From positions 1,120,717 to 1,184,716 of the forward strand of contig CBDCDO010000001.1 in assembly GCA_965215375.1 (NCBI GenBank): a stretch of 64,000 nucleotides of DNA. Reading direction: 5' to 3'. Positions 513-58,905 of the stretch are shown in pieces. The position numbers were made by a program, and so were the translations under genes. Position 1 is the first letter of the stretch; every line of letters begins with the position of its first letter. Below the pieces are notes generated by a model. It did no database searches and was not told where the DNA came from. It saw only the letters and a program-made list of their open reading frames with translations. The DNA comes from Dehalococcoidia bacterium. Its GTDB lineage: Bacteria > Chloroflexota > Dehalococcoidia > Bin125.

Positions 513-881
513 GATGTATCTCCAACCGCTGCGGACTCCATGTCTTCGAGCCGACGGCCTCAGGAGGGTCGCCGACCGTGTGCAAGGACATTAGCAGATA
601 AGTCACGCGTTTGCGATGTCGTGGGTGCATGGTCCATAGGAGGTCGCTGCACGCGCCGGCGCTCGCTCTGTAACAGCGGCTACAGCGACGTCCCATGACG
701 CCGCGATCCAGTCGCGTCGTCGTAGGTTTCGACGTGTCGAAAGAGATTGTGAAACTTGTACTTAAGTCGGCCGCGCGGCGCGGGGGAGCGGCCGGTCGGC
801 TGGCCAAGGGACAGCTGAATCGAGGATCGGGGGTCCGAGAACACAGTGCAAGGCTGAGGAAATCGCCCCCAAGTACCGCCT

Positions 882-3398
882 ATGAGACTGTCTCACTTGG
901 CGGCCATGGCAACACTCGTCGCGCTGCTGGGCGCGATGTTCGTGGCTCTCCCCTCGGCGGGTGCGCAGACGGCTGATCCGCCAATGTGTGGCGCATCAAT
1001 GACGCTCATGCTCGAGCACGACACGAACGGTGATGACACGATTCAAGACACTGAGCCGCAGAACGAGACATGCACGGTCGCCAAGACTTCAAGTGCGATC
1101 GATGCCGCGGACGATGTCGACATCACTCTCGAGACCGGAACCGCGGGCGTTGCGACCTTTGTGTCTTCGGCGCCAGCTAACAACACAGCGACAGTGACAT
1201 TCACAGCAGCCATGAAGGGGACTGCCACCTTCAAGGTCGCGATCGTTCGTGCAGGGGTGTTGTCCAATGTCAGCACGCACAAGATCACTGTGACCGAGTA
1301 CACCGCCGACGAGGCGCCTGACACGTCGGCGATTTCGCCGGACTTCAAGATCACTTTCATTGGGGACTCGGACAACATCGTCGCCGCTGGTACATCGGTC
1401 GACCTGAAGGTCGAAGAGACGAATGCGACGTTGACCAGGATTACGGTCTCGGGCGGTCTGAGCTTTTTCCAGCGCACCGAAGAGTACCGATACCTCGCTG
1501 ACAACACGAACAAGCCTGACGATGACGACGAACTGCTTGACTTGAGCACGACCGCAACGGTGTGGCGCAACGTGATCGGAACGATCGTGCCGACGCATCA
1601 GGTGCATTTGGCCACAAGTCCGGGAGCCGGGACCATCTACGAGACTGCTGGCGAAACTCGCTTCCGACAGCCGAAGCGGGCCGATCAGGACGGGACCGTC
1701 ACGCCTGAAGTGGGTGCCACGCCAGATGAGAGTGACACCTTGCGAGAAACAACGCTCGAACTCCACGTCCCTGTCGGGACTACGCCGGGTGAGTACACCG
1801 TCACCGCGATCGGTACCTACAACCGCGATGGACGTGATCACGTTCTGGTGAAGCCCGCGATTTTGACCGTTGGTGACACCTCCGAGGTCGAAAGCGTCTC
1901 CTTCGGTCTGAGTAGCCCGCGTCGGATCAATCTCACTTCCTACGTGCCAGGTGCAGCTCCCGCGGTGATCAACGCCAAGGCCATGGACAAGGTCGGCGGC
2001 GGCGCCAAGGGCGACATGCCCGACGGTTACGACGACGACGTCTCGACCAAGGAACGCTCCAGCATCTCGGTTGGCTCCGCAAACACGACCGAGCTCACGC
2101 TGAGCATCCTTAACCTAAGCGGCAAGCCGAGTGAGGCTGACGCGATCACCTCGATCGTAATCAGCACCACCGGTGGCAGCCTGAGCGCCAACGCCGGCTC
2201 GACCGAGACCTACCGCTGTGACTCGGTCCAGCGCACGCGTGCGTGTGAGATTGACATCTCCAGCTACGCCGACGCCGGCGACCCGCTGCCAGCGAAGATT
2301 CGTTTGCTGCTGAACGCACCTGAAACGCCTGGAACCGCTGAGGTGACCGCAGTTGTGGTCGCTGGTGGTGAAGTCTTCACCCCAGACGCCGTGACCGTGA
2401 CCTTCTACGGTCCGCTGGACGCACTGGACCTGGGCGACGCATCGGGCACCGTGCTTGGCTACGACGTAGTCGGCGGTGACAAGGATGCCGGCATGGACGG
2501 CGAGTCGGCCGAGGACAAGGGTGACGCTGACAAGGGCTCCGACAAGCGCGACCAGATCACCTTCTCGGTCGGCGCGATGGACGCCAACGGTAACACGATC
2601 CGCACGCCAGACTTGACCGTCAAGATCAGCGACCCCGATGGTGTCACGGTCTCCCCGTCCAAGTACGAGAAGGCCCAGACCGGCGCGCTGAACAACACCC
2701 TCCACATCGATGTCGACACTGCCGCTACTGCAGCACTGGCTGCGGGCACCTACACCCTCGAGGTGAGCAAGGGCGCCAAGAAAGCCAGCGTCGAGTTCGA
2801 TGTGGTCCACACTGCCGATGGCATCGAGGCGGAAGCCTCTGAGATGAACCCGTCCGAGATCGGCGACACGGTGACCGTAAGCGTGGAAGTCAGCTCAGAC
2901 GGCACAGCCGTCGCGGATGGCACGCCAGTGACGTTCCGAGCATCGGACAAGGCGGGCGACACGGACTCGATCCTGATCGCGACGACCACGGAGACTCCGA
3001 TGACCAAGGGCGGAATGGCCCAGGTGACCTACGTGACCGTCGGCAATGGAGCCGCTGTTGTGACGGCGACGGTCGCTGATGACACCACCCCGGTCAACGC
3101 CGTGCTGGTCATTCAGAGCACCGCTGGTGCTCCGGAGCCGGTGGTTGAGCCGGAGCCCGAGCCTGAGGTGGCCTCGGTGGATTGTCTCAGCAACTTGAGT
3201 GGGTTCTCCACTTGGACCTGCGGTGTTGACGCTGATGTGTCCGAGATCTTCACTATGGTCTCGGAGCGTGGCGTGACTGCTATCCACCTGTGGAACGGCA
3301 CCAACTGGGTGCGCTACTCAGTAGTGGGCGGCTCTGAGGTACCGGGCTCGAGTGACTTCATGGTCACCAAGACCGACATCCTCTACATCAGCCAATAG
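882..3398 (+). CDS. Large secreted Ig-like-domain surface protein (candidate S-layer protein)
   Basis: Signal peptide ending AGA-Q; T/D/A/V-rich beta-strand composition; Big_1-like segment 'TVTVSVEVSSDGTAVADGTPVTF..TKGGMAQVTY'; PE linker then a ~70-aa Cys/Trp-containing C-terminal domain. Confidence 0.75.
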   Translation: MRLSHLAAMATLVALLGAMFVALPSAGAQTADPPMCGASMTLMLEHDTNGDDTIQDTEPQNETCTVAKTSSAIDAADDVDITLETGTAGVATFVSSAPANNTATVTFTAAMKGTATFKVAIVRAGVLSNVSTHKITVTEYTADEAPDTSAISPDFKITFIGDSDNIVAAGTSVDLKVEETNATLTRITVSGGLSFFQRTEEYRYLADNTNKPDDDDELLDLSTTATVWRNVIGTIVPTHQVHLATSPGAGTIYETAGETRFRQPKRADQDGTVTPEVGATPDESDTLRETTLELHVPVGTTPGEYTVTAIGTYNRDGRDHVLVKPAILTVGDTSEVESVSFGLSSPRRINLTSYVPGAAPAVINAKAMDKVGGGAKGDMPDGYDDDVSTKERSSISVGSANTTELTLSILNLSGKPSEADAITSIVISTTGGSLSANAGSTETYRCDSVQRTRACEIDISSYADAGDPLPAKIRLLLNAPETPGTAEVTAVVVAGGEVFTPDAVTVTFYGPLDALDLGDASGTVLGYDVVGGDKDAGMDGESAEDKGDADKGSDKRDQITFSVGAMDANGNTIRTPDLTVKISDPDGVTVSPSKYEKAQTGALNNTLHIDVDTAATAALAAGTYTLEVSKGAKKASVEFDVVHTADGIEAEASEMNPSEIGDTVTVSVEVSSDGTAVADGTPVTFRASDKAGDTDSILIATTTETPMTKGGMAQVTYVTVGNGAAVVTATVADDTTPVNAVLVIQSTAGAPEPVVEPEPEPEVASVDCLSNLSGFSTWTCGVDADVSEIFTMVSERGVTAIHLWNGTNWVRYSVVGGSEVPGSSDFMVTKTDILYISQ

Positions 3399-3409
3399 GG
3401 GAACTGAAC

Positions 3410-3438
3410 CCTCACCCCTCGCCTGTCGAGGGGTGAGG
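3410..3438 (+). terminator. Hairpin after the surface-protein gene
   Basis: cctcacccctcg-cctgt-cgaggggtgagg inverted repeat just after the stop. Confidence 0.5.
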
Positions 3439-3451
3439 CGACCCCAAAGCA

Positions 3452-3476
3452 GGTCTCCGATCAAGTCGGGGACTGG
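3452..3476. repeat. REP-like palindrome family B (gtccccga-tcaag-tcggggac)
   Basis: Copies at ~3452, 4272, 25224, 25258, 25293, 25495, 25528, 25563, 52237, 52552 and 52893. Confidence 0.85.
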
Positions 3477-3499
3477 ACTCTGGAGAAAGGAATGCTGAG

Positions 3500-4144
3500 A
3501 TGAAACAGCACAGACTGATGTCGAGGTTGACGGCGTTGGCGCTTGGACTTGCGGTGGCGATTGCGTCGCTGAGTCTGGCCAGTGCGCAGCAGGAGCCGCC
3601 GTTTCGCTATCACGGCGAGGGCACCGATGGCGACATGATTGTCGCCCACGATGCCGAGGGTATGGAACTCGGCATGGCGACGGTTGCCAATGGCGTTTGG
3701 TTCATCGATGTCGACCGCGATGAGGCGGACGGCGCCACCTTCACGCTCAACGGCGAAGCTACCACGGTCGAGCTGAGCTCAGAGACGAGCGACTCGGCCA
3801 AGGTCGCGCTGACGGTCGTTATGGAGGAAGACGACTCCATGATGGATGAAGGCGACGACGGTGAGATGTCCGAGGACGACGAGACCATGATGGAAGAGGA
3901 CGGCGAGATGTCCGAAGACGGCGACTCCATGATGGATGAGGATTCCATGGAAGACGGCCATATGGACGACTCGATGGAAGACGACCAAATGGACGAGTCG
4001 ATGGCGGACAACGGTTACCCGGCGACGGGTTCCGGTGGTCTCGCTACTGATGGTGTGTCGGCGGGCCTGGTGGGCCTGCTGATTGCGCTTGGTGCGGCGG
4101 CGATCGCTGGGATTGGTGTTCGTCGGGTGCGGAATCGGGCGTAG
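3500..4144 (+). CDS. Secreted acidic Met-rich protein with C-terminal sortase-type sorting signal
   Basis: Signal peptide (ASA-Q), D/E/M-rich low-complexity tract, YPATG + hydrophobic helix + RRVRNRA tail; AAGGA RBS. Confidence 0.8.
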   Translation: MKQHRLMSRLTALALGLAVAIASLSLASAQQEPPFRYHGEGTDGDMIVAHDAEGMELGMATVANGVWFIDVDRDEADGATFTLNGEATTVELSSETSDSAKVALTVVMEEDDSMMDEGDDGEMSEDDETMMEEDGEMSEDGDSMMDEDSMEDGHMDDSMEDDQMDESMADNGYPATGSGGLATDGVSAGLVGLLIALGAAAIAGIGVRRVRNRA

Positions 4145-4165
4145 TTTTCCTGCGGAAGCGGGGAG

Positions 4166-4207
4166 CCCCCTCCGCCCCTTCGGGGCATCTCCCCCAGAGG
4201 GGGAGGT
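4166..4207. repeat. REP-like element family C (cccctcc/ccctcacc..ctccc..gggag type)
   Basis: Related copies at ~49869, 50157, 50468, 59975 (reverse) and 63527. Confidence 0.7.
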
Positions 4208-4220
4208 CTTGAGAGGGAAT

Positions 4221-4256
4221 CAAGAGGCGGGGTCGCAAGGCCCCGCCTCTTGTTGT
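4221..4256 (+). terminator. Rho-independent terminator
   Basis: caagaggcggggtc-gcaa-ggccccgcctcttg hairpin followed by T-rich bases. Confidence 0.7.
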
Positions 4257-4502
4257 GTCTGCGGCCCGAGCAGGTCCCCGATCAAGTCGGGGACGGGAGT
4301 TTTCGAAGCGCGGGCTGGTGTCATTGGGGTTAGCGGGACTTTTGAGACAGTCTCAGTGGGTACTCACTTCTCATTTGCCCGCATTTTGGCAGTATTGGAC
4401 GCCGATAGGGAGCGCGATACGCCGATCCGGCGGAAAACCGTGCTGGTGCTATCTTTCGCGGTGGTTGCTGAGGTTGGTAATCGGCTAGGACAGGTGCATT
4501 CC

Positions 4503-7500
4503 ATGGAGCGTTCGCAGATCGGTGTTCGGTTGGTGGGTTTGACAGGCTTGGTCGCTGCGGCGCTCTTGTTTGCAACACTCGTTTGGAACGGTGGGGGGGG
4601 GTAATCCCTAACCCCTTTGCGCGTGTCGAAGCGCAAACGGCCACGGTTGATGCCGAGCTGCGCATCGCTGCACAACGACTTGAGGATGGCGGACTTCAGT
4701 TTGGATTGCGGGTGCGGGACGAGTCGGGGAGTTGGGCGGAGCCGGCAGAACCACGTGTCAACTCGTTCGATCCAGCAAACGTTCGCACCGGACGCTGGCT
4801 CTCCAGTTCGTCGCTGATTCTGGAAGTTGACCAGTCAGGCGTCGGACGGCTGGTCCGCACCGAGGATTCTCAGCCTTCACCACCGACCGAAACGACGCTG
4901 ATCACCGGTGTTGAGGGATGGGATGGCGACATTCGCTATTCCGCCTGGAATGACGCCGACGGCGATCTGATCACAACGGTGTCGATCTACAGCGGATCAG
5001 CCGGTGCGCCCGACGGAGAATTGCGGACGACCATTACCTGCCGAGAGCGTGAAATCTCGGTCGTAGTCGGCGGGTTGTCTGCCGACACTACTCCGAGCGA
5101 CGACGATTCCAGTGCGGTCGATGTCAGTTGGAGCGTTGACCGCGGGGCGGCACTCTCGGAACAACGAGCCGTCTGGCCGATTGAAGGTGGAGTCGAACTG
5201 ATCGGATTGACGGAGAGCGACCTGGGAGCTTCGCTGCTCAGCGGCGGCTCTACGCTGGCGCTCTCCCTCGCGACGACTCCGCCGCTTCGGAGCTCGATCG
5301 ACCTCGACGCGCTCTCGGAGTTGCCGGTATACGACAATCTGGTCCAGTGTGCTGGTGACAGTTCGGCCTCCGAGCTCAAGTCGGGCCAGACGGAACTGCG
5401 CATCCAGGCGCAAGTTCGCGATGACGAACGCGTCGAGTTTGCTGTCCAGCAACGCACCGACGATGGCTGGAGCGAACAGATCTTGCCCGACTCGCGATCG
5501 ATGCGGGCGTTCGGAGACCCGACAAATTGGCTGTCGTCTTCAACGATCTCCGTGGCCGTGGATGTCGAACCGTCCCATGTGATCGTCTCGCCGGACCCGG
5601 TGCAACGCAGTGTGTCGCCGCCTATCAACCCGATCTTACGCAGCGGATGGGTCACTGGCTTGCTCGGGTATGCCGCTGAACTGGACTCTGCAGGGCGGCT
5701 GAACTCGATCGTTGCTGCTCACAGCGAGCAAGAATGGCAGTTGCAGGTCGGCTGTTTCAACGGCACAAGCGGAGTACAACTTGCTGGTATTCCTAATGAC
5801 GCGACAGGCGCGATGGCGCTTACGCTCGATGACATGCAATCGGCAGTGAATTGGCGTGTGGTGACAGAGGACGACACCTCCGTGCTGCGCCCCGCCGATA
5901 CTGCGCGTCTGATCGAGCGACTGCGCGGCACGGAGACGGTCACTGTTAGTGTGAATCAGACGGAGCCCGCGACGTTTGAGTTGACCGGAATGTTCGAGAC
6001 GCCGATCCAGGCCAATCTCGACCAATGCGGCAACTACACGGATCAGGCTTGGGAGCCGGTGACCGAGTTACAGGAAGGCAGAACCGAAGAAGGCGTGTTC
6101 TACAGGGTCTCGTATCCTGACTGGAACGACGGAGAGCGGTTTACGTCCGTCTCGATTGCTGCTAGCGGCGAGGGTCGATCAGGGCGGGGAGATCCGACGC
6201 GGTTGCATTTCCATTGCAATGGTGGCCGGAATTTCAACACATTTGTGTCAGGGTTGCCAATAGACCCCGGCGATCAAGTTGTTCGCAGCCGCCTTGCCGA
6301 CGGTGATTGGGTCGAGGAACGCTGGAGTACCCGGCCCGACGGCAGCGGCGACACCGTAGCCGACGTCGGAACCATCCAGGGCGACTATGACCGGTTGCGC
6401 GAAGCTCAGACCCTGGAATTGGAGTTCCCCAGTACACCTGTGATGAGACGATCCTTCGATCTGACCGCTCTCTTCGATACTCCGGTCCAGACGAACATTG
6501 ACAATTGCGGTACTCCGTTGTGGACACAGGAGACCGCCTACGTGCCGATCCTGGCGCGAGGCCAGTCGTCAGCATCTGTTTCTTACTCGGCTCAAGTGGA
6601 AGAAGACCGCGGCATCTACAGCGTGGTGACCAATAGGGTCTCCCTCCCTGCCATTCCCGGCCTGCGCGGCGATCGTTTGGAGTTGGAAATCGCATGCTTT
6701 ACGTTTGGAGTCCAGAACGTTCGATTCAAGTGGTTTGGGGTATCCGAGGCCGACACGCGGGACGTGACACTGGAGATTGACGGGCATGAGTATGAAGCCG
6801 AGCCGTGGCGGGCCTTCGACTGGATGAGCGGCTCCGACCACTGGTTCGGCGTCGATAGTCGAGATGCTTCACGCGTAATCGCTCGGCTGCGCGGCGCGTC
6901 GTCCTTGAAGGTCACGATTCACGGCGCCAATCTGCCGACGACGACGTTCGATGTGACCGGCATGTTCGACACGCCGATCCAGGAGAACATCGACGAGTGT
7001 GGTTTCTATCAGCCGGGCGAGACGCGTGAGCCGCCGCCTGGGCTGAACGCCTCCGGCACGACCCAGGGCATCAACGGCGATGAGACGACGATCTCATGGT
7101 TCCGCGAGCAAGGACCGGGCGTGATTCTAAGTACGACGATCCGAGAACTGTTACCGAGTGTTTCAGGTACATCTTCCATAGAGTTGCAAGCATATTGCGG
7201 TGTGGGTGGTTTGACGCTCATTGTCTTTGGGACGCAACTCGCCGACTTGAGCGGAGAAGAAGCATCTGTGGAATGGAGCGTTGATGACACGCCCCCAGTT
7301 AGCGAGTTGTGGACCGTAACCCACATTGGACAGGTCGGAGTACTTGCTCCAGCAAATCAACCGTCAGTGTTAGCAACGTGGCGTAAGGGCTCCGTACTCA
7401 ACGTCACGATCGGCGGAGCGCAGCCAATCCAGCAGCGCTTCGATCTTGGCGCCATCTTCAGCGTCCCTGTCATCTATACGTTTGACGAGTGTCTATCCAG

Positions 7501-50654: not shown

Positions 50655-52016
50655 TTAGAGCTCAAAGAGGGTGATTGTGTCGTTGGGGGCCAACTGGTCC
50701 CCGGTTGGCTCGGCTCAACAGAACCAGTCTTCGGTGAGGCCGGGTCGGTGGACGTGGGGTGCGGGGACGTCGGGCCAAGGTTCGGCTTCGAGGAGTCGGC
50801 AGGCTGTGGCTTTGATTTGCGGGAACGATGCTTGTTGCTCTGCGAGGCGTGCGATCTCAGCTTGGAGAGTGTCCATCCGAGGTTCGGCGTGGCGCCAGTT
50901 CCAGGTGAGGCCGTCGGGATCGTAAGTCGTGAGCGCGCCCATGTCTCGCATTGGCTGGACGAGCGGCGAATCGGACGGTGCGAGGAGGCGGAGGCCGAGC
51001 TGCACCGGCGGGGTGAGGTCGACGAGCCGGCGGGTCTCGATGAACTGGAGCAGGTCGAGGAGATCGCCCGCTGAGGTCCAGGGCGTGAAGGGAAGCCAGG
51101 TCGGGCGGAGCGCGATTCCCACTCGTTCGGTGAGATCGAGGACGCGGTCGAGGTCGGCGGCGGTGTGTCCCTTGTCCAGAATGTCGAGGAGCTGGTTGTC
51201 GACCGACTCGAACGCTGAGGTGATGAAGGTGACGCCGCGTTCGGCGATTTCGGGCAGAAGCGCCTGGTGCTCCAGCAGGTGCTCGACTTTGATGGTCGCG
51301 TCGAAGGTGAGCTGGGGGTGCGATGCCGATGCTCGGCGGAGCAGGTGCATTGCGAGATCGGGCGCGTTGAGGAAGTCTGGATCGCCGAAGGTGATGTGTT
51401 CCGCGCCGGCTTCGACTTGCTGGTCGATGTCGGCGAGGACGGTCTCGGCGCCGTTGAGACGCAGTCGTCCGGCGTAGATCGGCGTGAGGGGGCAGTGGGT
51501 GCATCGGTGCGCGCAGCCGCGTGTGGATTCGACGTATCCGGCAAGATGCGCGGCGCCGCTCGGGTCGCGGTACTGGGCGTACTGGTCGAGCGGGGGCAGC
51601 AGCGAGCGGTCGGGAACGAGTCGCGCCTCGCGGTCGAAGTGGGGCACGTCCGCGGCGGTCGCGCCATTCGCGACTTGGACGAGTTGGAGGTCGGTGTCGC
51701 CGCTGATGGTGCGTCCGAGACCGAGGTCACCAAGCGAGTTTGCGGCGAGTCCGTAGAAAACGATCTTGTCGCGGTGGTCGTGGAGCTGTCGGGCGATGCG
51801 GATGCCGAGTCGGGCGGCAGTGTGCATCGGCGTGGAGATGGCGACGAGGTCAGCGTCGGAGGCGGCAGCCGCGAGGTGGTCCGAGCTGACTGACTGGACT
51901 GCGAGGTCGAAGGCTGAGACGTGGTGTCCAGCGTCGACCAGGGCAGCGGTCGGAGCGGCGACGCCAAGCGGCTGGTGTCCTTGCTCATAGGTGGATATCA
52001 GGAGGACGCGCGCCAT
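50655..52016 (-). CDS. CUAEP/CCAEP-tail B12-binding-like radical SAM selenoprotein (UGA 50715-50717 = Sec; 453 aa)
   Basis: 'STRGCAHRCTHCP' CxxxCxxC; readthrough gives ..TEDWFC-U-AEPTGDQLAPNDTITLFEL-TAA; hairpin just 3' of the UGA. Confidence 0.88.
50689..50709 (-). promoter_or_regulatory. Candidate bacterial SECIS hairpin
   Basis: GCCAAC-C-GG-GGA-CC-A-GTTGGC starting 5 nt after the UGA. Confidence 0.55.
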
Positions 52017-52087
52017 GATCTCAGGGTATCGCTAAGGTCGGGTGAGGTTGGGTCTGTGGGGGGATCTCGCGGGGCACTTGGCGTTCT

Positions 52088-52960
52088 CGTCATACCCGCG
52101 CTTGTCGCGGGTATCTCGCTGAGGGCAGCACCGGTGTCGACGGGTCCAGGTGAGCACGTCGGCCTTGCACTACGGATCGAGATTCCCGCGGCGGAGGGCG
52201 GGTATGACGGAGGTGTGTCGCGGCATCGGGCCGAGCGGGTCCCCGATTAAGTCGGGGACGGGGAATGGGGTGAATCTCCCGTGGCGAGGCGGTCTCAGCT
52301 GATTGGCTCGTCTGCGAGGTCGAAGGCTGAGATGTGGTGGTCAGCGTCGATCAGGGCAGCGGTCGGAGCGGCGATGGCGAGCGGCGGGGGCTATGAGTTA
52401 TTCGTCATACCCGCGCTTGTCGCGGGTATCTCGCTGAGGCCAGCACCAGGGTCGATGCGTCCGTGTGAGCGCGTCGGCCTTGCTCGACGGATCGAGATTC
52501 CCGCGGCGGTGCGCGGGTATGACGGAGGTGTGTCGCGGCTTCGGGCCGCGCAGGTCCTCGATCAAGTCGGGGACGGGGAATGGGGTGAGTTTCCCGCGGC
52601 GAGGCGGTCTGAGCTGACTGACCGGACTGCGAGATCGAAGGCTGAGACCTGGTGGCCGGCGTCGATCAGGGCAGCGGTCGGAGCGGCGATGGCGAGCGGC
52701 GGGGGCTCCGAGTTGTTCGTCCTACCCGCGCTTGTCGTGGGTATTTCGCTGAGGACAGCACCGGTGTCGATGCGCCTTGGTGAGCACGTCGGCCTTGCAC
52801 TACGGATCGAGATTCCCGCGGCGGTACGCGGGTATGACGGGGTTGTGGCGGAGCAGGGGAATGACGGAGGTGTGGCTCGGTATGGGGCCGAGCGGGTCCC
52901 CGATCACGTCGGGGACTGGAAACAGGGGCGGGATTCCCGCAGCGGAGTGCGGGGATGACG
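52088..52960. repeat. ~315-bp tandem composite repeat: REP-A pair + REP-B + captured fragment of the radical SAM gene
   Basis: Fragment 51871-51972 recurs at ~52283-52385 and ~52598-52700 between REP blocks. Confidence 0.92.
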
Positions 52961-53009
52961 GCATTTGTGGGCTGTGGAGACCTTTAGGGGGCGGTCCTGC
53001 TTTGGGTTG

Positions 53010-53618
53010 CTATTTCTTTGAGGGTTTGTAGTAGGGGTTGTCGCCGGATTGGTGGTCGGTGATGTCGATGAGTTCGTCGATCTCGGGGAGTTGTTCCTTG
53101 ACCGCGACCTCGATGCCTTGCTTGAGCGTGACGTTGGCCATGCCACAGCCTTGGCATCCGCCACCCATTTCGATGTAGGCCTTGCTGCCCCGCACTTCGA
53201 GGAGCTGCACGTAGCCTCCGTGAGCGGCGATTTGGGGATTGACCTGCTCGTCGAAGATGGCCTGAATTCTGTGTGCGATGGGGTCGCGCCAGACGGGGTT
53301 CGGGTTGTGGAACTCGAGACCGGAGACGTTGGGGCCTTTGAACTCGTAGTGGACCGCGGTGCCGCGCAGGTCGTCGATTCGGTCGCCCTCGATGTAGAGA
53401 CGGAAGTCTGGATACTCGGCCGTGGCGTCGCCGTCGGGCTCGAAACCCTTTTCGACGATGGTGAGCACGTGCTCGAAACCCTCGGACGTTTTGCCGGTGA
53501 TCTTGAGTCGGAGTCCGGCGACTTCCTCGGGATAACCGGTCAAGACCTCGACCAATTTCGAGCGTGCGACGTCTGAGAAGGTGATACCGAGTTCGCCAAT
53601 TTTCGTGTCGGTGGTCAT
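53010..53618 (-). CDS. nfuA: Fe-S cluster biogenesis protein NfuA
   Basis: Degenerate A-type N-domain ('GLRL.I', 'F.NPN') plus NifU-C 'VNPQIAAHGG..MGGGCQGC..TLKQGIE..DITDH.SGDNPYY'. Confidence 0.92.
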   Translation of the reverse strand: MTTDTKIGELGITFSDVARSKLVEVLTGYPEEVAGLRLKITGKTSEGFEHVLTIVEKGFEPDGDATAEYPDFRLYIEGDRIDDLRGTAVHYEFKGPNVSGLEFHNPNPVWRDPIAHRIQAIFDEQVNPQIAAHGGYVQLLEVRGSKAYIEMGGGCQGCGMANVTLKQGIEVAVKEQLPEIDELIDITDHQSGDNPYYKPSKK

Positions 53619-53661: not shown

Positions 53662-55455
53662 ATGGGTCAATTGGTGCAACTTGAATCGGAGAATGCCGTG
53701 GGTGTCGAGCAAGTATTGGTACAGAAGAATCTTGAAATCCCGATGCGCGACGGGATCATCTTGCGGGCTGATCTGTATCGGCCGGTTGACGCGGATCAGC
53801 CTGGTCAGGCGGTGCCAGGGGTCGTGACGCGGACGCCGTACGACAAGGAGCAGTCCGGAGCGGGCGTGGTAGCGGTGATGCCGAACGCGCTCAAGCTGGC
53901 CGAGCGCGGGTACGCGGTCGTGGTGTGCGATTGTCGCGGTCGGTACGAGTCGGAGGGTGAGTTCCGGCCGTTCCACCAGGAGGGCGAGGACGGTTACGAC
54001 ACGCTCGAATGGGTAGCGGCGCAGGATTGGTGCGACGGCAACACGGCGATCTATGGGCCGTCGTATGTCGGGGCGACGACGATGCTGGCGGCTCGGGAGC
54101 GTCCGCCGTCGCTGCGATGCGCGGTACCGATTATCACTGCGGATGACTACTACGACGGCTGGACGTATCAGGGTGGTGCCTTTCAGCTCGGTTTCGTTGG
54201 CTTGTGGGGGAGCGGTCTGGCGGCGACGGGCTATCTGCAGCAGGGGCATTCGCGTCCGATGGAGGCGGCTGAGCAAGTGACCGACGCGGTGATGGGCAAC
54301 GGCTTTCGGCTGTTGGGTAGCCGTCCGCTGAACTCGATGCCTGGGATATCGCAGGATGGCGTTGCGCCGTACTGGCACGAGTGGCTGGAGCACGAGACCA
54401 GGGATGAGTATTGGGAATCGGTGCGGCACTCGGCCGATTACTCACGATTTCAGGTGCCGATGCTGCATATCGGCGGATGGTTCGACATCTTTGGCATTGG
54501 CACGGTGCGGAATTTCCGTGGCATCTCGGCGGAGGGCAACGGCGACCAGCACCTGATTATGGGTCCTTGGGCGCATACCAACTACGACCGCTGGCTCGGT
54601 GAGTTGGAGTTTGGACCGACTGGCGCTGCGGCGGCGGCGAACGTGATTGCCGATATCAACGTGTTCCTCGATCGCCATCTCAAGGGACGAGATCGCGAGC
54701 TGGCACCGGTGCGCTGGTTTCTGATGGGTGCGAATGAGTGGCGCACGGATGAGTCCTGGCCTCCTCCGAATGCGGAGGCGCGGTCGCTGTACCTCGCCTC
54801 CGACGGAGGCGGCACGTTGCACTATGGCGACGGTCGGTTGGTCGATGAGTGTCCGGCAGATGATCTGCGCTGGGATGAGTATTCGTACGTCGGCTGCAAG
54901 CCGGTGATCACTGAGGGCGGATCTACGTTGCAGCAGGCGATCGGGCTGCCCGGTCCGCGGGATCAATCGCGCGTCGAGAGTCGTGACGATGTCTTGTGTT
55001 ACACGAGTGAGGTGCTGACGGAGTCGGTGGATGTCGCGGGACCGGTTGAGGTGGACGTGTGGTTCTCGAGCAGTCAGCCGGATACGGACATCACGGCCAA
55101 GCTGGTGGATGTCCATCCTGATGGCAAGCCGGTGTCGCTGGTCGACGGGATTCTGCGGGCGCGATTCCGCGAGGGATTCGACCGCGAGGTGCTGTTGGAG
55201 CCTGGCGAGGTGGTCAAGGTGACCATCGATTTGGCGTCTGTGGGGCATCGCTTCGACGTCGGGCATCGGATCCGCCTGGAGATATCAAGTAGCAACTACC
55301 CTCGGTTCATGGCGAATTCGAATGATGGCGGATCTGTCAACTCAGCGACCGAGATGCAGACGGCGATCAATCGGATTCGTCGAGGCGGGAAGTATCCATC
55401 CGCGCTACGGTTCTATGAGCTGAGGGACGACATGACCGAAAGGAACGACCAATGA
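53662..55455 (+). CDS. CocE/NonD family hydrolase
   Basis: 'IPMRDG..LRADLYRP', 'RTPYDK', 'G.SYVG', 'GGWFD', 'GPWAH', 'GHRIRLEISSSNYPRF'. Confidence 0.93.
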   Translation: MGQLVQLESENAVGVEQVLVQKNLEIPMRDGIILRADLYRPVDADQPGQAVPGVVTRTPYDKEQSGAGVVAVMPNALKLAERGYAVVVCDCRGRYESEGEFRPFHQEGEDGYDTLEWVAAQDWCDGNTAIYGPSYVGATTMLAARERPPSLRCAVPIITADDYYDGWTYQGGAFQLGFVGLWGSGLAATGYLQQGHSRPMEAAEQVTDAVMGNGFRLLGSRPLNSMPGISQDGVAPYWHEWLEHETRDEYWESVRHSADYSRFQVPMLHIGGWFDIFGIGTVRNFRGISAEGNGDQHLIMGPWAHTNYDRWLGELEFGPTGAAAAANVIADINVFLDRHLKGRDRELAPVRWFLMGANEWRTDESWPPPNAEARSLYLASDGGGTLHYGDGRLVDECPADDLRWDEYSYVGCKPVITEGGSTLQQAIGLPGPRDQSRVESRDDVLCYTSEVLTESVDVAGPVEVDVWFSSSQPDTDITAKLVDVHPDGKPVSLVDGILRARFREGFDREVLLEPGEVVKVTIDLASVGHRFDVGHRIRLEISSSNYPRFMANSNDGGSVNSATEMQTAINRIRRGGKYPSALRFYELRDDMTERNDQ

Positions 55456-55778
55456 TCTACGAACTGCGAATCTACACGGCGCATCCGGGCAAGATGGGCT
55501 CGCTGATGAAGCGTTTCCGCGACCATACGATGGAGTTGTTCGAGCGTCACGGGATTCACAACGTGGGCTACTGGACGAACTCGGTGGGCGGTCGCTCGGA
55601 CGAGCTGTGGTACATCGTCAGCTTCGAGAGTCACGGTCAGCGGGAAGAGGCGTGGAAGAACTTCGCGTCGGATCCTGAGTGGCAGGCAGCGCGCGCGGCG
55701 TCGGAGGAGAATGGTCCGCTGGTGCACCACATCGAGAATCGGATTCTGCAGCCAACAGAGTGGTCGCCGATGCCATAG
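55452..55778 (+). CDS. NIPSNAP family protein
   Basis: 'MIYELRIY..PGKM..RF..LFERHGI..VGYW..AWKNF.SDPEW..L.PT.WSP'. Confidence 0.92.
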   Translation: MIYELRIYTAHPGKMGSLMKRFRDHTMELFERHGIHNVGYWTNSVGGRSDELWYIVSFESHGQREEAWKNFASDPEWQAARAASEENGPLVHHIENRILQPTEWSPMP

Positions 55779-55783
55779 GCGGT
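55647..55783 (+). repeat. 137-bp direct repeat, copy 1 (NIPSNAP 3' end)
   Basis: Matches 57277-57413 with 7 mismatches by manual alignment. Confidence 0.95.
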
Positions 55784-55935
55784 GGGGATCATATACATGA
55801 CTTGACAACGACATCGCAGAAAGGAATTTGGCGACTTCTGTAAAGAAGTTTACAAATCCTATTGCCATTCGACCTCCTGAGGTCAAGAATGGTCATTCGG
55901 GACGGCGTTACGCACGCAGTGACCGAATATGGAGG

Positions 55936-56008
55936 CGGCCCCGGTGAGACTTGAACTCACAACCCCCGCTACGCAAAAACGGTGCTCTTTCCATTGAGCT
56001 ACGGAGCC
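55936..56008 (-). tRNA. Atypical tRNA-like gene, anticodon TGC (Ala)
   Basis: GGCTCCG TA GCTC AATGGAAA GAGC A CCGTT TTTGCGT AGCGG GGGTT GTGAG TTCAAGT CTCAC CGGGGCC G; lacks G3:U70. Confidence 0.75.
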
Positions 56009-56040
56009 GCCTCCCAGCCTACAGGAGCAGGAGAACGGAA

Positions 56041-56124
56041 ATGCCACGCCAACCGATGATCCCGCCGACAACCAAGACGCCGGAGCAGCTCGCCAAAGCG
56101 CTGCTCAAGAATCCAAAGGGGTGA
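56041..56124 (+). CDS. Small 27-aa ORF MPRQPMIPPTTKTPEQLAKALLKNPKG
   Basis: AGGAG RBS, ATG..TGA, fits between the two tRNA-like genes on the opposite strand. Confidence 0.45.
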   Translation: MPRQPMIPPTTKTPEQLAKALLKNPKG

Positions 56125-56127
56125 GAG

Positions 56128-56200
56128 TGCCCTCGATGGGACTCGAACCCATGACTTTACCCGTGGCAGGGGTACGCTCTCTCCGCTGAGCTACGAGGGC
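56128..56200 (-). tRNA. Atypical tRNA gene, anticodon GCC (Gly)
   Basis: GCCCTCG TA GCTC AGCGGAGA GAGC G TACCC CTGCCAC GGGTA AAGTC ATGGG TTCGAGT CCCAT CGAGGGC A; all stems fully paired; no encoded CCA. Confidence 0.85.
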
Positions 56201-56210
56201 GTAACCAGTT

Positions 56211-56238
56211 TAGCCCCCGGCCAATTGGCCGGGGGCTA
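56211..56238. repeat. Perfect 28-bp palindrome
   Basis: tagcccccggccaattggccgggggcta. Confidence 0.9.
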
Positions 56239-56275
56239 TCCAATTCATCAAATCAGCTCCACATGAGGAATCGAA

Positions 56276-56977
56276 TTGCCAATGACTGTGACGATCTCTC
56301 GAACGCACGTAATCACCGGCCTATTGGTCGCCGTAATCGTGGCTCTGGCCGCTGTCCTGGTGTTGAGCGGAGGGGGTGAGCAAGTCTCTCAGACTGCTGA
56401 TCGTGAGACCGCGATCCCTGTTGAACAGCAGTCAGCGTCTGTTGAACAACAGTCAGTTCCTGTTGAACAACAGTCAGTTCCTGTTGAACAACAGTCAGTT
56501 CCTGTTGAACAGCAGTCAGCGTCTGTTGAACAGCAGTCAGTTCCTGTTGAACAACAGTCAGTTCCTGTTGAACAGCAGTCAGCGTCTGTTGAACAGCAGT
56601 CAGCGTCTGTTGAAGACGACACCGTTGCGAACCTCGTTATCGCTATGGCTCCATTGATGGCGAATGTCGAACGGTGCGAACAAGTATCGTGGGAATACAA
56701 TGCCAATATTCGAGTTATGACGGAGAAGGGCGCAGACAACCTTACGCGCACAGATGCTCAAATCCTTGAATCTGGGGCTAGCAGAGTGTTCGACTGCCTT
56801 GATGAGATCGAGACTCAAGTGGCGCAGTTGGAGATTGATTTTCCTGTTTCGGTGAGATCGGATGAATTTAGGGGAACTAGGCAAGCGTGGGGGAGAGCTA
56901 CTGATGTCAAGAGTGTTTTCGAGCAATCGTGGGCAGAATTGAGGTCCACTCTTGTGGGTCGTGGATTGTTGGACTAG
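56276..56977 (+). CDS. Membrane-anchored hypothetical protein with 9 heptad repeats (VEQQSVP/VEQQSAS)
   Basis: N-terminal TM helix; 21-bp tandem repeat 56420-56608; helical C-domain with two Cys. Confidence 0.8.
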   Translation: MPMTVTISRTHVITGLLVAVIVALAAVLVLSGGGEQVSQTADRETAIPVEQQSASVEQQSVPVEQQSVPVEQQSVPVEQQSASVEQQSVPVEQQSVPVEQQSASVEQQSASVEDDTVANLVIAMAPLMANVERCEQVSWEYNANIRVMTEKGADNLTRTDAQILESGASRVFDCLDEIETQVAQLEIDFPVSVRSDEFRGTRQAWGRATDVKSVFEQSWAELRSTLVGRGLLD

Positions 56978-56984
56978 GGATGCG

Positions 56985-57276
56985 TTACGCCCCTTTGAGT
57001 TCTTGGTAGGTCAAACGTCGGCCCACTGAGCGCTGGACGATCTCGCCCATGATGTCGATGGTGTCGAGGTCGCGCATTGTGGCGCGGCAAGCAAACTCGT
57101 TTGCGTATCGCTGAGTGTGCTTGGCTGACCAGTGGTGGAACGTGCCGATGAATCCGCGCTTGAGCATCGACCAAAACGACTCGATTCCCTGTGTGTGAAA
57201 CGGGCCTTTGACGTATTGGCGAGCGCTGTGCTGAACTGATCGGTGCTTGAACCCGAAGTCCTCGAGGTCCTGATAC
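56985..57276 (-). pseudogene. IS1595-family (ISXO2-like) transposase, C-terminal remnant
   Basis: 'H.SV.HSARQYVKG..HTQGIESFWSMLKRG..GTFHHWSAKH..RY..EF..R..GRRLTYQEL'; 5' part missing, cut at the direct-repeat junction. Confidence 0.9.
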
Positions 57277-57413
57277 GAGGCGTGGAAGAACTTCGCATCC
57301 GATCCTGAGTGGCAGGCAGCGCGCGCGGCGTCGGAGGAGAATGGTCCGCTGGTACACCACATCGAGAACCGGCTGCTCCAGCCAACAGAGTGGTCGCCGA
57401 TGCCATAGGCGGT
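57277..57413 (+). repeat. 137-bp direct repeat, copy 2 (orphan NIPSNAP 3' end)
   Basis: Diverged duplicate of 55647-55783. Confidence 0.95.
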
Positions 57414-57459
57414 CGGGCGAGCGTCGTTGGCGATATTCTGAACGGGTGAGGGTATCGCC

Positions 57460-57794
57460 GTGACAACGCAGCAGAATCAGAGCGGGGCGCTACTCGGCAC
57501 GGTGATGTCGATGGACGAGATCCGCGAGCGGGGGGGGGGATGCCGTTCGAGGAATTCTGTGCCTCTCATCCTTGGTGGGAGTGGACTGAGGCACGGCTCG
57601 GCCGTCGGATGATTGACTCTCAAGGTCGCGCGTGGGTCGCGATGTGGGATACCGAGTATGGGGTCGGGATTAGCTACGAGCCTGAACTCACTCCTCAAGC
57701 GGAAGTGTTCATCGCTGAGCTTGCACGGCGAGCTCGGGAAGAGATTCTCGCTGGTGGGGGTGACGTGTTCGATTATGACGCTCCGGATGACTAG
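57460..57794 (+). CDS. Putative antitoxin (acidic small protein upstream of RelE); possibly split at G10 (57530-57539)
   Basis: GTG 57460 has a GAGG RBS but is out of frame with ORF 57540..57794; G11 or G8 fuses them; 5 nt upstream of the toxin gene. Confidence 0.5.
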
Positions 57795-57799
57795 AGCCG

Positions 57800-58084
57800 A
57801 TGCGATATCGGGACCGTCGCACGGGGGAGGCGATTGAACAGTTTCGTGGGCTATCTCCATACCCAAAGGGTCAGGTAAAGGAAGCGCTCCGTAGGCTGGA
57901 ACTCGATCCTTACGGCCCCGCGAGCCTTCGACTCAAGACTCAAGAATCTACATACCGAGTTCGTACGGGAAATTACCGGGTGCTGTACAACCCGGGACCG
58001 GGCGATATGGAGATTACCGTCTTTCGGATCGCATTGCGGGACGTGGCTTATGAGGGATTTGCACATCCCGACAGTCGGCCGTGA
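57800..58084 (+). CDS. RelE/ParE family toxin
   Basis: 'ALRRLELDPYGP..LRLK..TYRVRTGNYRVLY..ITVFRIALRDVAY'. Confidence 0.85.
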   Translation: MRYRDRRTGEAIEQFRGLSPYPKGQVKEALRRLELDPYGPASLRLKTQESTYRVRTGNYRVLYNPGPGDMEITVFRIALRDVAYEGFAHPDSRP

Positions 58085-58089
58085 TCTGG

Positions 58090-58905
58090 TTAGGCTCGAT
58101 GTCGTAGCCGGGCGACCATGACGGGTGGGATGTTTGGGAGATGATCCCAGCTGAGGCGACCTTCGGCGTCTCCTTTGCCTCCGTCGGTGATGGCGGGTTC
58201 GCGGATTCCGTCGAGGACCCAACCTCGATCGAAGGCGGTTCCGAATAGTTCGGTCAGCGTGCGGTCGAAGTAGGGCTGGATGGCCGGTTGGCCGACGATG
58301 GCGATGCCGTGACCCACTCCTCTGTTGAGGTAGCTCGTGATGCGTATGCCCGACTCTTCGATGAACTGGCCGTCTGGGGTCTCGGTCCGCTCGCGGTAGA
58401 GCTTCACATGGGGTCCGGGCGTGAAGGCTGGATGCAGGACGGAGAACACGAACGGCGCGCCATCGGCGAGGGCGAGGGGGAGCACTTCTAGGAGCGGCGA
58501 GATCTCGGCGATGTCCATGAGAGCCATGTTGCACACCACGGCTCCGAAGGGCGCGCCATCGGCGCCGGCGAGCGCGGCTAGGGCGTCTCGATCGGTGGCG
58601 TCGAGTTGGAGCCACCTGATCCGATCGCTCTCTGAGCGTTGCTTGGCGTTGTTGAGCTGTGCGTCCGAGCCGTCGGTTGCGGTGACGGTGACGCCTCGCT
58701 TGGCGAGCTGTCGCGCGAAGTTGCCGTTGCCGCAGGCGATTTCTAGGACGGTCGCGGGTAGGGGCTCGAGAAGCTCGATCGTGCTGGGGAACACGAGCAC
58801 GCGCTGCCAGTAGTTGCCGTCGTCGCCCTGTGCTTCGTCCCAGAAATCGGCGTTGACATCCCAGGCGGCGAGCGACTCGGTGTTGGTGTCGGGGTAGTCG
58901 ACCAT
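58090..58905 (-). CDS. Class I SAM-dependent methyltransferase
   Basis: 'VLEIACGNG', 'VTATDGS', 'LDATD', 'VVCNMALMDI', 'FVFSVLHP'. Confidence 0.9.
   Translation of the reverse strand: MVDYPDTNTESLAAWDVNADFWDEAQGDDGNYWQRVLVFPSTIELLEPLPATVLEIACGNGNFARQLAKRGVTVTATDGSDAQLNNAKQRSESDRIRWLQLDATDRDALAALAGADGAPFGAVVCNMALMDIAEISPLLEVLPLALADGAPFVFSVLHPAFTPGPHVKLYRERTETPDGQFIEESGIRITSYLNRGVGHGIAIVGQPAIQPYFDRTLTELFGTAFDRGWVLDGIREPAITDGGKGDAEGRLSWDHLPNIPPVMVARLRHRA

Follow-up and report, generated by a model that had tools for sequence, protein, structure and literature searches.

The window analysed here is a stretch of 64,000 nucleotides from the genome of a Dehalococcoidia bacterium of the phylum Chloroflexota (GenBank assembly GCA_965215375.1, contig CBDCDO010000001.1, positions 1,120,717 to 1,184,716 of the forward strand). 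The genome, hereafter G000, consists of 2 contigs and 3.39 Mb, with a completeness of 97.9%. Positions 55784 to 57276 of the window correspond to the right-hand 1,493 bp of an insertion sequence (IS) of the IS1595 family carrying passenger genes, among them 2 transfer RNA (tRNA) genes with the anticodons GCC and UGC. Genes for tRNAs were called with default ARAGORN, with Rfam RF00005 (gathering score 29) and with an nhmmer profile built from the host tRNAs. The locus and its borders contain the following features, with positions in the window and, where it applies, the strand.

55452–55778 (+): intact NIPSNAP-family gene (Pfam PF07978, 93.8 bits)
55647–55783: direct repeat, copy 1, formed by the 3′-terminal 132 nt of this gene plus 5 further nt, ending in TAGGCGGT
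55784–55805: terminal inverted repeat of the IS, GGGGATCATATACATGACTTGA, with the outer end at 55784
55934–56008 (−): passenger tRNA gene, anticodon UGC (ARAGORN; Rfam 60.2 bits at 55936–56008)
56041–56124 (+): open reading frame (ORF) of 27 codons, MPRQPMIPPTTKTPEQLAKALLKNPKG, between the 2 tRNA genes, convergent with the tRNA(GCC) gene and 2 nt off its end
56127–56200 (−): passenger tRNA gene, anticodon GCC (ARAGORN; Rfam 69.0 bits)
56211–56238: exact 28-bp palindrome found by inverted-repeat search, with arms 56211–56224 and 56225–56238 that are 100% complementary
56276–56977 (+): passenger gene for a membrane protein of 233 aa, convergent with the transposase frame
56985–57362 (−): transposase-frame ORF as given in the ORF list
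56985–57276 (−): transposase remnant, the last 97 of 309 codons, cut off at 57276/57277
57277–57413: direct repeat, copy 2, a second, slightly different NIPSNAP 3′ end, followed by the original downstream flank

All the items that the initial annotation of this stretch had listed, namely the palindrome, the 2 tRNA genes, the 27-aa ORF, the convergent membrane-protein gene and a candidate IS end, are present. Both tRNA genes, for which it had suggested scoring by ARAGORN, were called by that program, and their Rfam scores fall inside the range of 49.4 to 75.5 bits spanned by the 48 tRNA matches of the genome. The transposase is of the IS1595 type, as had been proposed, based on its match to PF12762 (65.9 bits, cut-off 27), but only a C-terminal fragment of about 97 of 309 codons is left; the match covers profile positions 85–151 of 153 only, and codons 1–28 of the listed ORF read duplicated NIPSNAP-gene sequence in antisense.

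The transposase family has 2 matches in all in the genome, one in the window and the other at G000:C1:779550-781639, where a complete sister element of 2,090 bp resides. The sister element is delimited by inverted repeats of 22 nt (GGGGATTATATACGTGACTTGA and its partner, 91% complementary, the best of 67 pairs), is flanked on both sides by the 8-bp duplication ATGAGATG, and encodes a transposase of 309 aa (NCBIfam NF033547, 188.4 bits, cut-off 75; PF12762, 131.1 bits). Its gene order is that of the window, with the transposase followed by a membrane-protein paralogue (195 aa), the palindrome, tRNA(GCC) and the 27-codon ORF, and the slot occupied in the window by tRNA(UGC) holds an 82-codon ORF, the product of which matched nothing above cut-off in NCBIfam. 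The repeats and the duplication of the sister element enclose its tRNA(GCC) gene, placing the tRNA inside the boundary of the IS.

Comparison with the sister element also defines the ends of the window copy. Because GGGGATCATATACATGACTTGA matches the left repeat of the sister element at 20 of 22 bases, position 55784, at which the initial annotation had placed its candidate IS end, is the true outer end; the repeat also fits the clade end motif GGGRMTTATATAC of related elements, and public contigs begin or switch flank at 55783/55784. At the other side, the homology over the transposase ends at 57276–57284, the remnant being 87% identical to the sister gene in DNA. The window copy has this one terminal repeat only (55784–55805), the other end having been replaced at 57277, and is therefore a relic of an IS1595-family member rather than an intact member. 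The mobile cassette envisaged earlier is, at this site, an immobile relic that is no longer able to move by itself.

The remnant is flanked by direct repeats, 55647–55783 and 57277–57413, which the initial annotation did not mention and which are identical at 130 of 137 positions. The 7 differences alter one residue only (I to L, read from the alignment), and the pattern looks like that of 2 alleles of a working gene, not of a decaying fragment. TAGGCGGT, which precedes the terminal repeat at 55784, recurs at 57406–57413 before the old flank; this is presumably the 8-bp target site, and such a recurrence would be expected if the left end had been lost later. By eye, 2–5 nt are shared at the truncation junction. 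The element would thus have inserted 5 nt behind the stop codon of the NIPSNAP gene, making the 8-bp duplication, and a later illegitimate join between the inside of the transposase gene and another NIPSNAP allele would have removed the left repeat together with approximately 212 transposase codons, the first two thirds of the gene.

The insertion is not shared by the congener loci examined. The flank is single-copy in 36 of 36 congeners, and none of the 9 congener loci that were examined contains a match to window positions 55784–57276, arguing against the tRNAs being chromosomal genes of relatives. At 6 of these 9 loci, downstream window sequence aligns directly after the NIPSNAP gene. At 2 loci the aligned part is what lies beyond 57413, and at 4 it is the methyltransferase gene, starting at about 58091; no downstream window sequence aligned at the remaining 3. 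Among the 64 other genomes of the order (65 including G000), none has a match of at least 90% to the cargo.

Both window tRNAs form cloverleaves with 0 stem mismatches, all 4 stems being perfect, and have the canonical elongator shape, that is, intact stems, a 7-nt anticodon loop with U33 (CUGCCAC in tRNA(GCC) and UUUGCGU in tRNA(UGC)) and the conserved D- and T-loop bases, including the D-loop GG (T loops UUCGAGU and UUCAAGU, respectively). Their identity elements are mismatched, as had been noticed from the sequence, when compared with the tRNAs of the host, which retains its own canonical Gly-GCC and Ala-UGC genes. The host tRNA-Gly reads GCGG..CCGC-U73, with G1:C72, C2:G71, G3:C70, U73 and an encoded CCA, positions that we take to be the identity set of glycyl-tRNA synthetase (GlyRS). 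The IS-borne tRNA(GCC), GCCCUCG..CGAGGGC-A73, shares G1:C72, C2:G71, C35 and C36 with it but has C3:G70 and no CCA, and so lacks the host-type tRNA-Gly feature set (U73, G3:C70, CCA). Similarly, the 3 tRNA-Ala genes of the host all have G3:U70 and A73, whereas tRNA(UGC), with C3:G70, U4:G69, G73 and no encoded CCA, is not of the host tRNA-Ala type and, judging by these positions, should not be named tRNA-Ala on its anticodon alone. The acceptor helix of tRNA(UGC) extends into the flanks in the predicted fold (by reading, through pairing of GGGAGGC on the 5′ side of the gene with GCCUCC on its 3′ side). An encoded CCA is present in 46 of the 51 ARAGORN predictions in the genome, the exceptions being the 3 IS-borne genes, tRNA-Glu(CUC) and one doubtful prediction.

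The bodies of these tRNAs point to an origin among arginine tRNAs. The tRNA(GCC) of the sister copy is 79–82% identical to the canonical tRNA-Arg(GCG) of related genomes of the family, and tRNA(GCC) differs from the latter at anticodon position 36 and, read by eye, also at positions 37 and 38. Among IMG/VR tRNAs that open with the two 5′-half motifs, 63 of 69 and 4 of 5 belong to tRNA-Arg; the window tRNAs combine such Arg-type 5′ halves with the anticodons GCC and UGC and not with the NCG or YCU anticodon of a full tRNA-Arg. The similarity of tRNA(UGC) is 0.82 to the tRNA of L091 and 0.81 to that of L027, 2 of the related loci described below, and 0.71 to the best host tRNA. Arg isoacceptors were the top host match for 7 of the 11 IS-associated tRNAs compared, the tRNA of locus L035 being exceptional in having a different D arm. 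The window tRNA genes are true cargo of this IS lineage, foreign in type, and not genes of the host.

The palindrome next to tRNA(GCC) has counterparts elsewhere. As RNA, it would form a G+C-rich stem of 12 bp with a 4-nt loop, and it lies between tRNA(GCC) and the start of the membrane-protein gene, 9–10 nt upstream of the 5′ end of the tRNA. A perfect hairpin with a 4-nt loop is found 9 nt upstream of tRNA(GCC) in both element copies (2 of 2) and upstream of none of the other 49 of the 51 predicted tRNA genes in the genome. The palindrome of the sister element contains one extra base per arm, a matched pair of insertions by which the pairing is kept. Hairpins of unrelated sequence precede IS-associated tRNAs at other loci, at a distance of 9 nt in L007a and L091 and of 12 nt in L007b, and strong upstream hairpins are present in L035 and L081b as well. 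Overall, the upstream 55 nt fold at −24 kcal/mol or below for 7 of 14 IS-associated tRNAs, compared to a host mean of −14.1 kcal/mol (sd 4.8, n = 48).

Conservation between the window and the sister element varies considerably along the module. Identity is highest in tRNA(GCC) (71/74, 96%), followed by the palindrome (26/28, 93%), the leader from the palindrome to the tRNA (9/10, 90%), the small ORF (72/84, 86%), the 5′ part of the membrane-protein gene (137/165, 83%) and the spacer between the palindrome and the membrane-protein gene (21/37, 57%). Two of the 3 differences in tRNA(GCC) make up a compensatory change of U27:A43 to C27:G43, and the third is in the variable loop. At 14% divergence, 74 positions would show no more than 3 changes with a probability of 0.005. 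The conservation of tRNA(GCC) points to selection but, coming from one sequence pair, is suggestive only.

To place the element among its relatives, transposase scans yielded 79 loci from species genomes and 80 from metagenomes, belonging to many phyla, all with transposases of 56% identity or less. A bounding script, which uses the end repeats and the 8-bp duplication, delimited elements at 61 of the 178 loci screened, and the ends of these elements share GGGRMTTATATAC. The elements end in GGGGATTAT... and are 1.4–4.6 kb long, with a median of approximately 2.4–2.65 kb in 2 large collections; 56 of the 61 exceed 1.6 kb, so that passengers are the rule in this clade. By end motif and lengths, the clade would presumably fit the ISNwi1 subgroup. 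The passenger set consisted of non-overlapping downstream ORFs, and Pfam searches with the 69 that encode at least 100 aa revealed many restriction-modification modules, helix-turn-helix proteins and many products without a family, several of the latter with a signal or membrane anchor. The restriction-modification cargo comprises N6/N4 or C5 methylases with HNH, GIY-YIG, HaeIII, MvaI/BcnI or GmrSD-type partners, and such passengers, type I M/S pieces included, were recorded at L020-L022, L031, L032, L036, L037, L042, L043, L045, L048, L059, L064, L067, L069 and L076. From their gene content, the restriction-modification-bearing elements appear to be small transposons that move defence genes.

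The idea that other IS1595 elements might carry tRNA genes with varying anticodons was borne out. The script counted tRNA cargo in 3 of the 61 bounded elements (~5%); it missed L035, where the repeat match ran into the flank, and L157/L158, where the tRNA is more than 400 nt upstream of the transposase, both of which were checked by hand. In total, 5 further bounded elements from other bacteria carry tRNA genes within their repeats:

L007: 2 tRNA genes, duplication AAGCTCTG
L027: duplication AAGCACTT
L035: duplication GATCGATC
L168: duplication GTTGCGAG
L157/L158: duplication CTTTTTTC

In addition, tRNA genes lie beside the transposase, with the two ends of the element not both defined, at L081 (2 genes), L091, L026 and L159. 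Locus L091, from another genus of the same family as the window, repeats the module order of the window, with a small ORF at 705–791 (+), a tRNA at 798–873 (−), a hairpin at 883–910, a membrane-anchored ORF at 1069–1431 (+) and the transposase at 2366–1428 (−), but its tRNA has the anticodon GUC. The IS-associated anticodons are GCC, UGC, ACC, GAC (twice), UAC, GUC, GCU, UGU (twice), CGU and UAA, together with a single loop of 8 nt, read by ARAGORN as CGCA; an Arg anticodon is absent from all of the roughly 11 distinct tRNAs associated with these IS.

Several further associations between tRNAs and mobile DNA were noted in the course of these searches. Canonical tRNA genes lie just outside the IS at L177 and L047. 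The reverse arrangement, an IS inside a tRNA array, was found on the metagenome contig L133: 21 predicted tRNA genes of unusual sequence are arrayed over 686–7047, and a bounded IS1595-family element (2649–4596, duplication CAAATTTT) lies within this array. Class I tRNAs with Arg-type bodies and the Ser anticodon GCU are encoded by L292, a viral contig, and by L026, at 4 kb from an IS1595 transposase, and look like further anticodon-switched Arg-type tRNAs on mobile DNA.

Contigs assembled from the community provide a further view of the locus. Four public runs, all from one study, contain most of the stretch, and their contigs were compared over window positions 55000–58200. Pieces covering 55784–56446, which spans the terminal repeat, tRNA(UGC), the small ORF, tRNA(GCC) and the palindrome, are near-identical to the window (a 693-nt contig, for example, has 3 other letters in 663 aligned bases), and in 3 runs they are preceded by 3 different unrelated flanks. 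Pieces that end at 57284 continue in all 4 runs, on the opposite strand, through the transposase as in the complete copy, and a joint from 55780 to 58077, present in 3 runs, represents forms without the IS and without the sequence up to 58077. We read these contigs as a sign that the community contains intact copies of the same tRNA-bearing element at several sites, sites that the contigs cannot place in one organism.

Collectively, these observations make it quite probable that the window contains a decayed IS1595-family "transporter" element with 2 tRNA genes as cargo. The backbone of the element consists of the transposase and the 27-codon gene near the right end, and the passengers are the membrane-anchored repeat protein and the 2 tRNAs. 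A unit composed of the hairpin, 9 nt and the tRNA would be transcribed on the transposase strand; RNase P would cut at the 5′ end of the tRNA, leaving the upstream RNA with a 3′ hairpin; and the tRNA would then be trimmed and provided with CCA by a host nucleotidyltransferase. That hairpin-tRNA RNAs are made and processed in this manner seems to us fairly likely. The host encodes 2 PolyA_pol-family genes, which could include a CCA-adding enzyme. Alone among the well-formed host tRNAs, tRNA-Glu(CUC) (G000:C2:1513939-1514013) lacks an encoded CCA, which implies that the cell is able to complete precursors of this kind. More tentatively, with the odds somewhat on the other side, tRNA(GCC) may then be aminoacylated, the dimeric GlyRS being the most plausible enzyme, and serve as an additional decoder of GGC and GGU. 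The host has the dimeric type of GlyRS (496.9 bits) and lacks glyQ; decoding is favoured by the perfect cloverleaf of tRNA(GCC), by its canonical loop (U33, A37) and by the preservation of its anticodon stem.

A number of observations weigh against this account or parts of it. In a FastTree phylogeny of 158 transposases, the 7 tRNA-bearing rows are scattered and need 7 changes, so that a single inherited cargo is not supported; the pattern would reflect either repeated gain or exchange and loss. Among 13 parsed IS-associated tRNAs, the acceptor and T stems have 0 mismatches and the D stems 1 (intact in 12), whereas the anticodon stem is imperfect in 7 of the 13 (10 mismatches), against 2 of 39 host tRNAs, a comparison biased by ARAGORN finding only genes whose other stems are intact. 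The anticodon, too, differs between modules of the same order, GCC in the window and GUC in L091. Both features argue against a conserved decoding role, and the varying anticodons and damaged anticodon stems of the relatives would speak for a role of the tRNA shape only, or for decay. A73 and C3:G70 of tRNA(GCC) depart from the Gly tRNAs of the host, and A20 and C35 could, by what we take to be the identity rules, invite arginyl-tRNA synthetase; with both kept, charging with arginine and hence mistranslation would be conceivable. With respect to processing, no RNase Z scored over the family cut-off in the host, leaving the 3′ maturation of CCA-less precursors unaccounted for. A promoter and terminator scan returned one promoter-like site, on the plus strand and no more than in shuffled sequences, none for the tRNAs, and no terminator-like site, and none of the public runs that contain the stretch is on record as RNA. 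Finally, neither junction of the relic, 55783/55784 in its NIPSNAP context or 57276/57277, is bridged by any listed short-read contig, and the exact shape of the relic therefore rests on the assembly.

The alternative that fares best, which we nevertheless regard as rather unlikely, is that the tRNA shape acts purely as an RNA-processing signal, with RNase P giving the IS transcripts a hairpin-protected 3′ end and the released piece having no role in translation. This would account for hairpins at 9–12 nt upstream of the tRNAs in the window, the sister copy, L007 (both genes) and L091, absent at the other 49 tRNAs of the genome, and for acceptor and T stems that are intact in 13 of 13 cases and D stems in 12 of 13 when anticodon stems often are not. 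It also fits L007, where the hairpin-tRNA pairs come after the stop codon of the transposase gene and in its orientation. Of the roles that the initial annotation proposed (decoy or replacement tRNAs, mistranslation, RNA-processing signals and integration sites), processing alone gains indirect support, through the recurrence of the upstream hairpin. However, the tRNA lies opposite to the transposase strand in L027, L035 and L168, and the anticodon stem is perfect in the window and the sister copy and maintained by a compensatory change; the pattern of intact stems may itself partly reflect detectability by ARAGORN.

Also unlikely is the view that the tRNAs are dead hitchhikers, a tRNA-Arg having been swept up through the use of a more distant right end and its copies having drifted, with the non-host identity features and the new anticodons as signs of decay. 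The broken anticodon stems in 7 of 13 IS-associated tRNAs would then need no further explanation, nor would the variation of anticodons among related modules, the missing CCA and the want of a promoter-like site in the window. The low frequency of tRNA cargo (about 5% of the bounded elements, 3 of 61) points the same way, as do L085 and L086, the nearest transposase relatives of the complete copy, which have no tRNA. Drift is, however, hard to reconcile with tRNA(GCC) being the best-conserved segment between the 2 copies (96% versus 57–93%, compensatory pair included), with 4 perfect stems in both window tRNAs, and with a structured hairpin that recurs at a fixed distance and with different sequence in L007 and L091. 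Moreover, simple drift would leave some Arg anticodons unchanged, and there is none among the approximately 11 tRNAs.

A third possibility, raised in the initial annotation and improbable in our estimate, is that the tRNAs serve as replacements or decoys, shielding the host of the element from anticodon nucleases or from toxins that target tRNAs. Defence cargo is frequent in related elements, as seen in the Pfam results for the 69 passenger ORFs, and the anticodon loops differ from those of the host isoacceptors; phage tRNAs that neutralise a tRNA-cutting defence system are also in print (PMC11464382). Yet the tRNA-bearing elements examined neither contain nor adjoin a gene for a tRNA-targeting nuclease, as far as was found, the neighbouring ParE-like locus is a weak match (E 0.0022) belonging to the host flank, and the varying anticodon is ill-fitting for the replacement of one targeted isoacceptor.

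A similarly low probability is assigned to the possibility that 2 strain haplotypes were fused during assembly, which would have produced the truncated junction at 57276/57277 and the direct repeat, the real locus containing a complete element. The 7 differences between the repeat copies, with a single residue change, resemble alleles of a functional gene, the contigs of all 4 runs continue from 57284 into a full-length transposase, and the listed contigs bridge neither junction. On the other hand, the assembly comprises 2 contigs only and is 97.9% complete, a junction similarity of just 2–5 nt makes a graph-based mis-join unexpected there, the depth across 57247–57353 is nonzero in every run, and real recombination between strains would give the same picture. 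That the tRNAs are ordinary chromosomal genes beside an IS scar is highly improbable, for although tRNA genes are common neighbours of mobile elements, with canonical ones just outside the IS in L177 and L047, the repeats and the duplication of the complete copy enclose the tRNA(GCC) module, all 9 congener loci examined have an empty site, the 64 other genomes of the order have no cargo match of at least 90%, and the host has its own Gly-GCC and Ala-UGC genes.

The affinities of the element with known systems are partial. IS copies with passenger genes, the "transporter" IS of the IS1595 family, are credited to Siguier, Gagnevin and Chandler 2009 in a passage of PMC3129680. The elements described here have the same family transposase, short inverted repeats, 8-bp duplication and non-transposition genes between the repeats, and differ in that the passengers include tRNA genes. 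No description of tRNA genes as passengers of IS1595-family elements was found by full-text searches of the literature, which had ISfinder, the 2009 paper, the reviews of insertion sequences and supplementary files outside their scope. On phages, plasmids and integrative elements, tRNA genes are well known. The supernumerary tRNA genes and arrays of those elements are likewise extra, non-host-like tRNAs on mobile DNA, but here one or two genes reside on an IS of 2–3 kb rather than an array on a large element, the bodies are Arg-type with non-Arg anticodons, and a hairpin lies upstream at a fixed distance. In tRNA gene recruitment, a body of one identity likewise bears the anticodon of another; an E. 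coli arginine tRNA was reportedly turned into a threonine tRNA by one anticodon mutation. The present case differs in being natural, on a mobile element and with several anticodons on related bodies. In animals, mascRNA, located behind MALAT1, is a tRNA-like 3′-end processing module. There too, a tRNA shape comes after a stable structure, an arrangement in which RNase P would be able to generate a protected 3′ end, but the IS-borne tRNAs are from another domain of life and are near-canonical rather than mimics. A passage of PMC9897764 describes partial tRNA genes located at attachment sites of integrated elements, which are similarly non-canonical tRNA predictions tied to mobile DNA; as presented in that passage, these are fragments resulting from site-specific integration, whereas the window tRNAs are full cloverleaves inside a transposon with a target duplication.

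The most far-reaching interpretation is one that we consider doubtful at present, namely that IS1595-type elements spread between phyla Arg-tRNA-derived genes with rewritten anticodon arms (GCC, UGC, GAC, GUC, ACC, GCU and others) and a fixed-distance hairpin, the products being made by the cell and changing decoding, as extra GNN decoders or as Arg-charged mistranslators where C35 is kept, or else acting as RNase P punctuation that shapes the IS transcripts. IS are generally regarded as carriers of a few protein genes at most. If small transposons do move tRNAs between genomes and phyla, altered decoders could spread cheaply, which would be relevant to the origin of anticodon shifts and of codon reassignments, to mistranslation in nature and to tRNA conflicts between mobile elements and defence. 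If, instead, the tRNA shape is a processing signal, it would represent a bacterial counterpart of tRNA-like 3′-end formation and a new way for an IS to control its own transcripts independently of the insertion site. In either case, such genes inflate and distort genome-predicted tRNA sets; those of the window would receive the labels tRNA-Gly and tRNA-Ala in spite of lacking the identity features of the host tRNAs.

The membrane-protein passenger has an N-terminal hydrophobic span from residue 5, 10 tandem repeats and a C-terminal domain. The repeats, at 56376–56656, are ten 21-nt units (7 aa each, VEQQS[AV][SP]). By reading, the sister gene contains only 1 or 2 such units, and joints of the public contigs fall inside the repeat region, suggesting that the repeat number probably varies. 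The protein has no family above cut-off in Pfam, which gave one sub-threshold match, or in NCBIfam, and its C-terminal domain had no usable match in the protein atlas. A link between tRNAs and membrane proteins by family was considered and rejected, since those of L007, L027, L035 and the window have no BLAST similarity to each other; signal- or membrane-anchored passengers also occur in elements without a tRNA, again speaking against such a link.

The 27-codon ORF is not noise, a possibility that was rejected because it recurs with mostly synonymous changes and also in elements free of tRNAs. Its motif, TPE[EQ]..K/R.LL, is present at 9 other loci with such transposases and at 3 places in its own genome. 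It is found in the tRNA-free elements of G010 and G001, in methylase-carrying elements and in L091, and the 1.7-kb element of G010 is made up of the transposase and this ORF alone. By reading, the changes among the 84 nt that separate the window copy from the sister copy, identical at 72, alter only 2 residues. The ORF is part of the IS backbone, and it had nothing above cut-off in NCBIfam. A third copy of the small ORF in the genome, MPRKPMIPPTTKSPEQVAKAILRKPMV (G000:C2:1013127-1013185; L301, ~3060-3150), is accompanied within 3 kb by neither a transposase match nor an end-repeat motif, and may be another IS scar.

Downstream of the relic, the initial annotation had pointed to an adjacent RelE-type locus. 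A ParE-like ORF does adjoin the element (57800–58084; a weak Pfam match below cut-off, E 0.0022), but the locus is host flank and not part of the element, because the same flank follows the NIPSNAP gene in congeners free of the IS: a homologue of window positions 57277–57727 occupies that place in the G032 and G010 loci, and an assignment of the ParE-like locus to the element was rejected on these grounds. Within this flank, a run of G residues at 57528–57539 exceeds by 2 bases its counterpart in the contigs of each of the 4 public runs (57532–57534), and dropping the 2 bases would join the ORFs 57460–57612 and 57540–57794 in one frame; an antitoxin-like gene upstream of the ParE-like ORF is thus probably split by a homopolymer error or by a real slippage variant. 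Upstream of the element, positions 51921–53031 contain long overlapping ORFs on both strands with repeated peptides (such as IPALVAGISLR.AP.S and GYDGGVSR), which suggests a tandemly repeated DNA segment.

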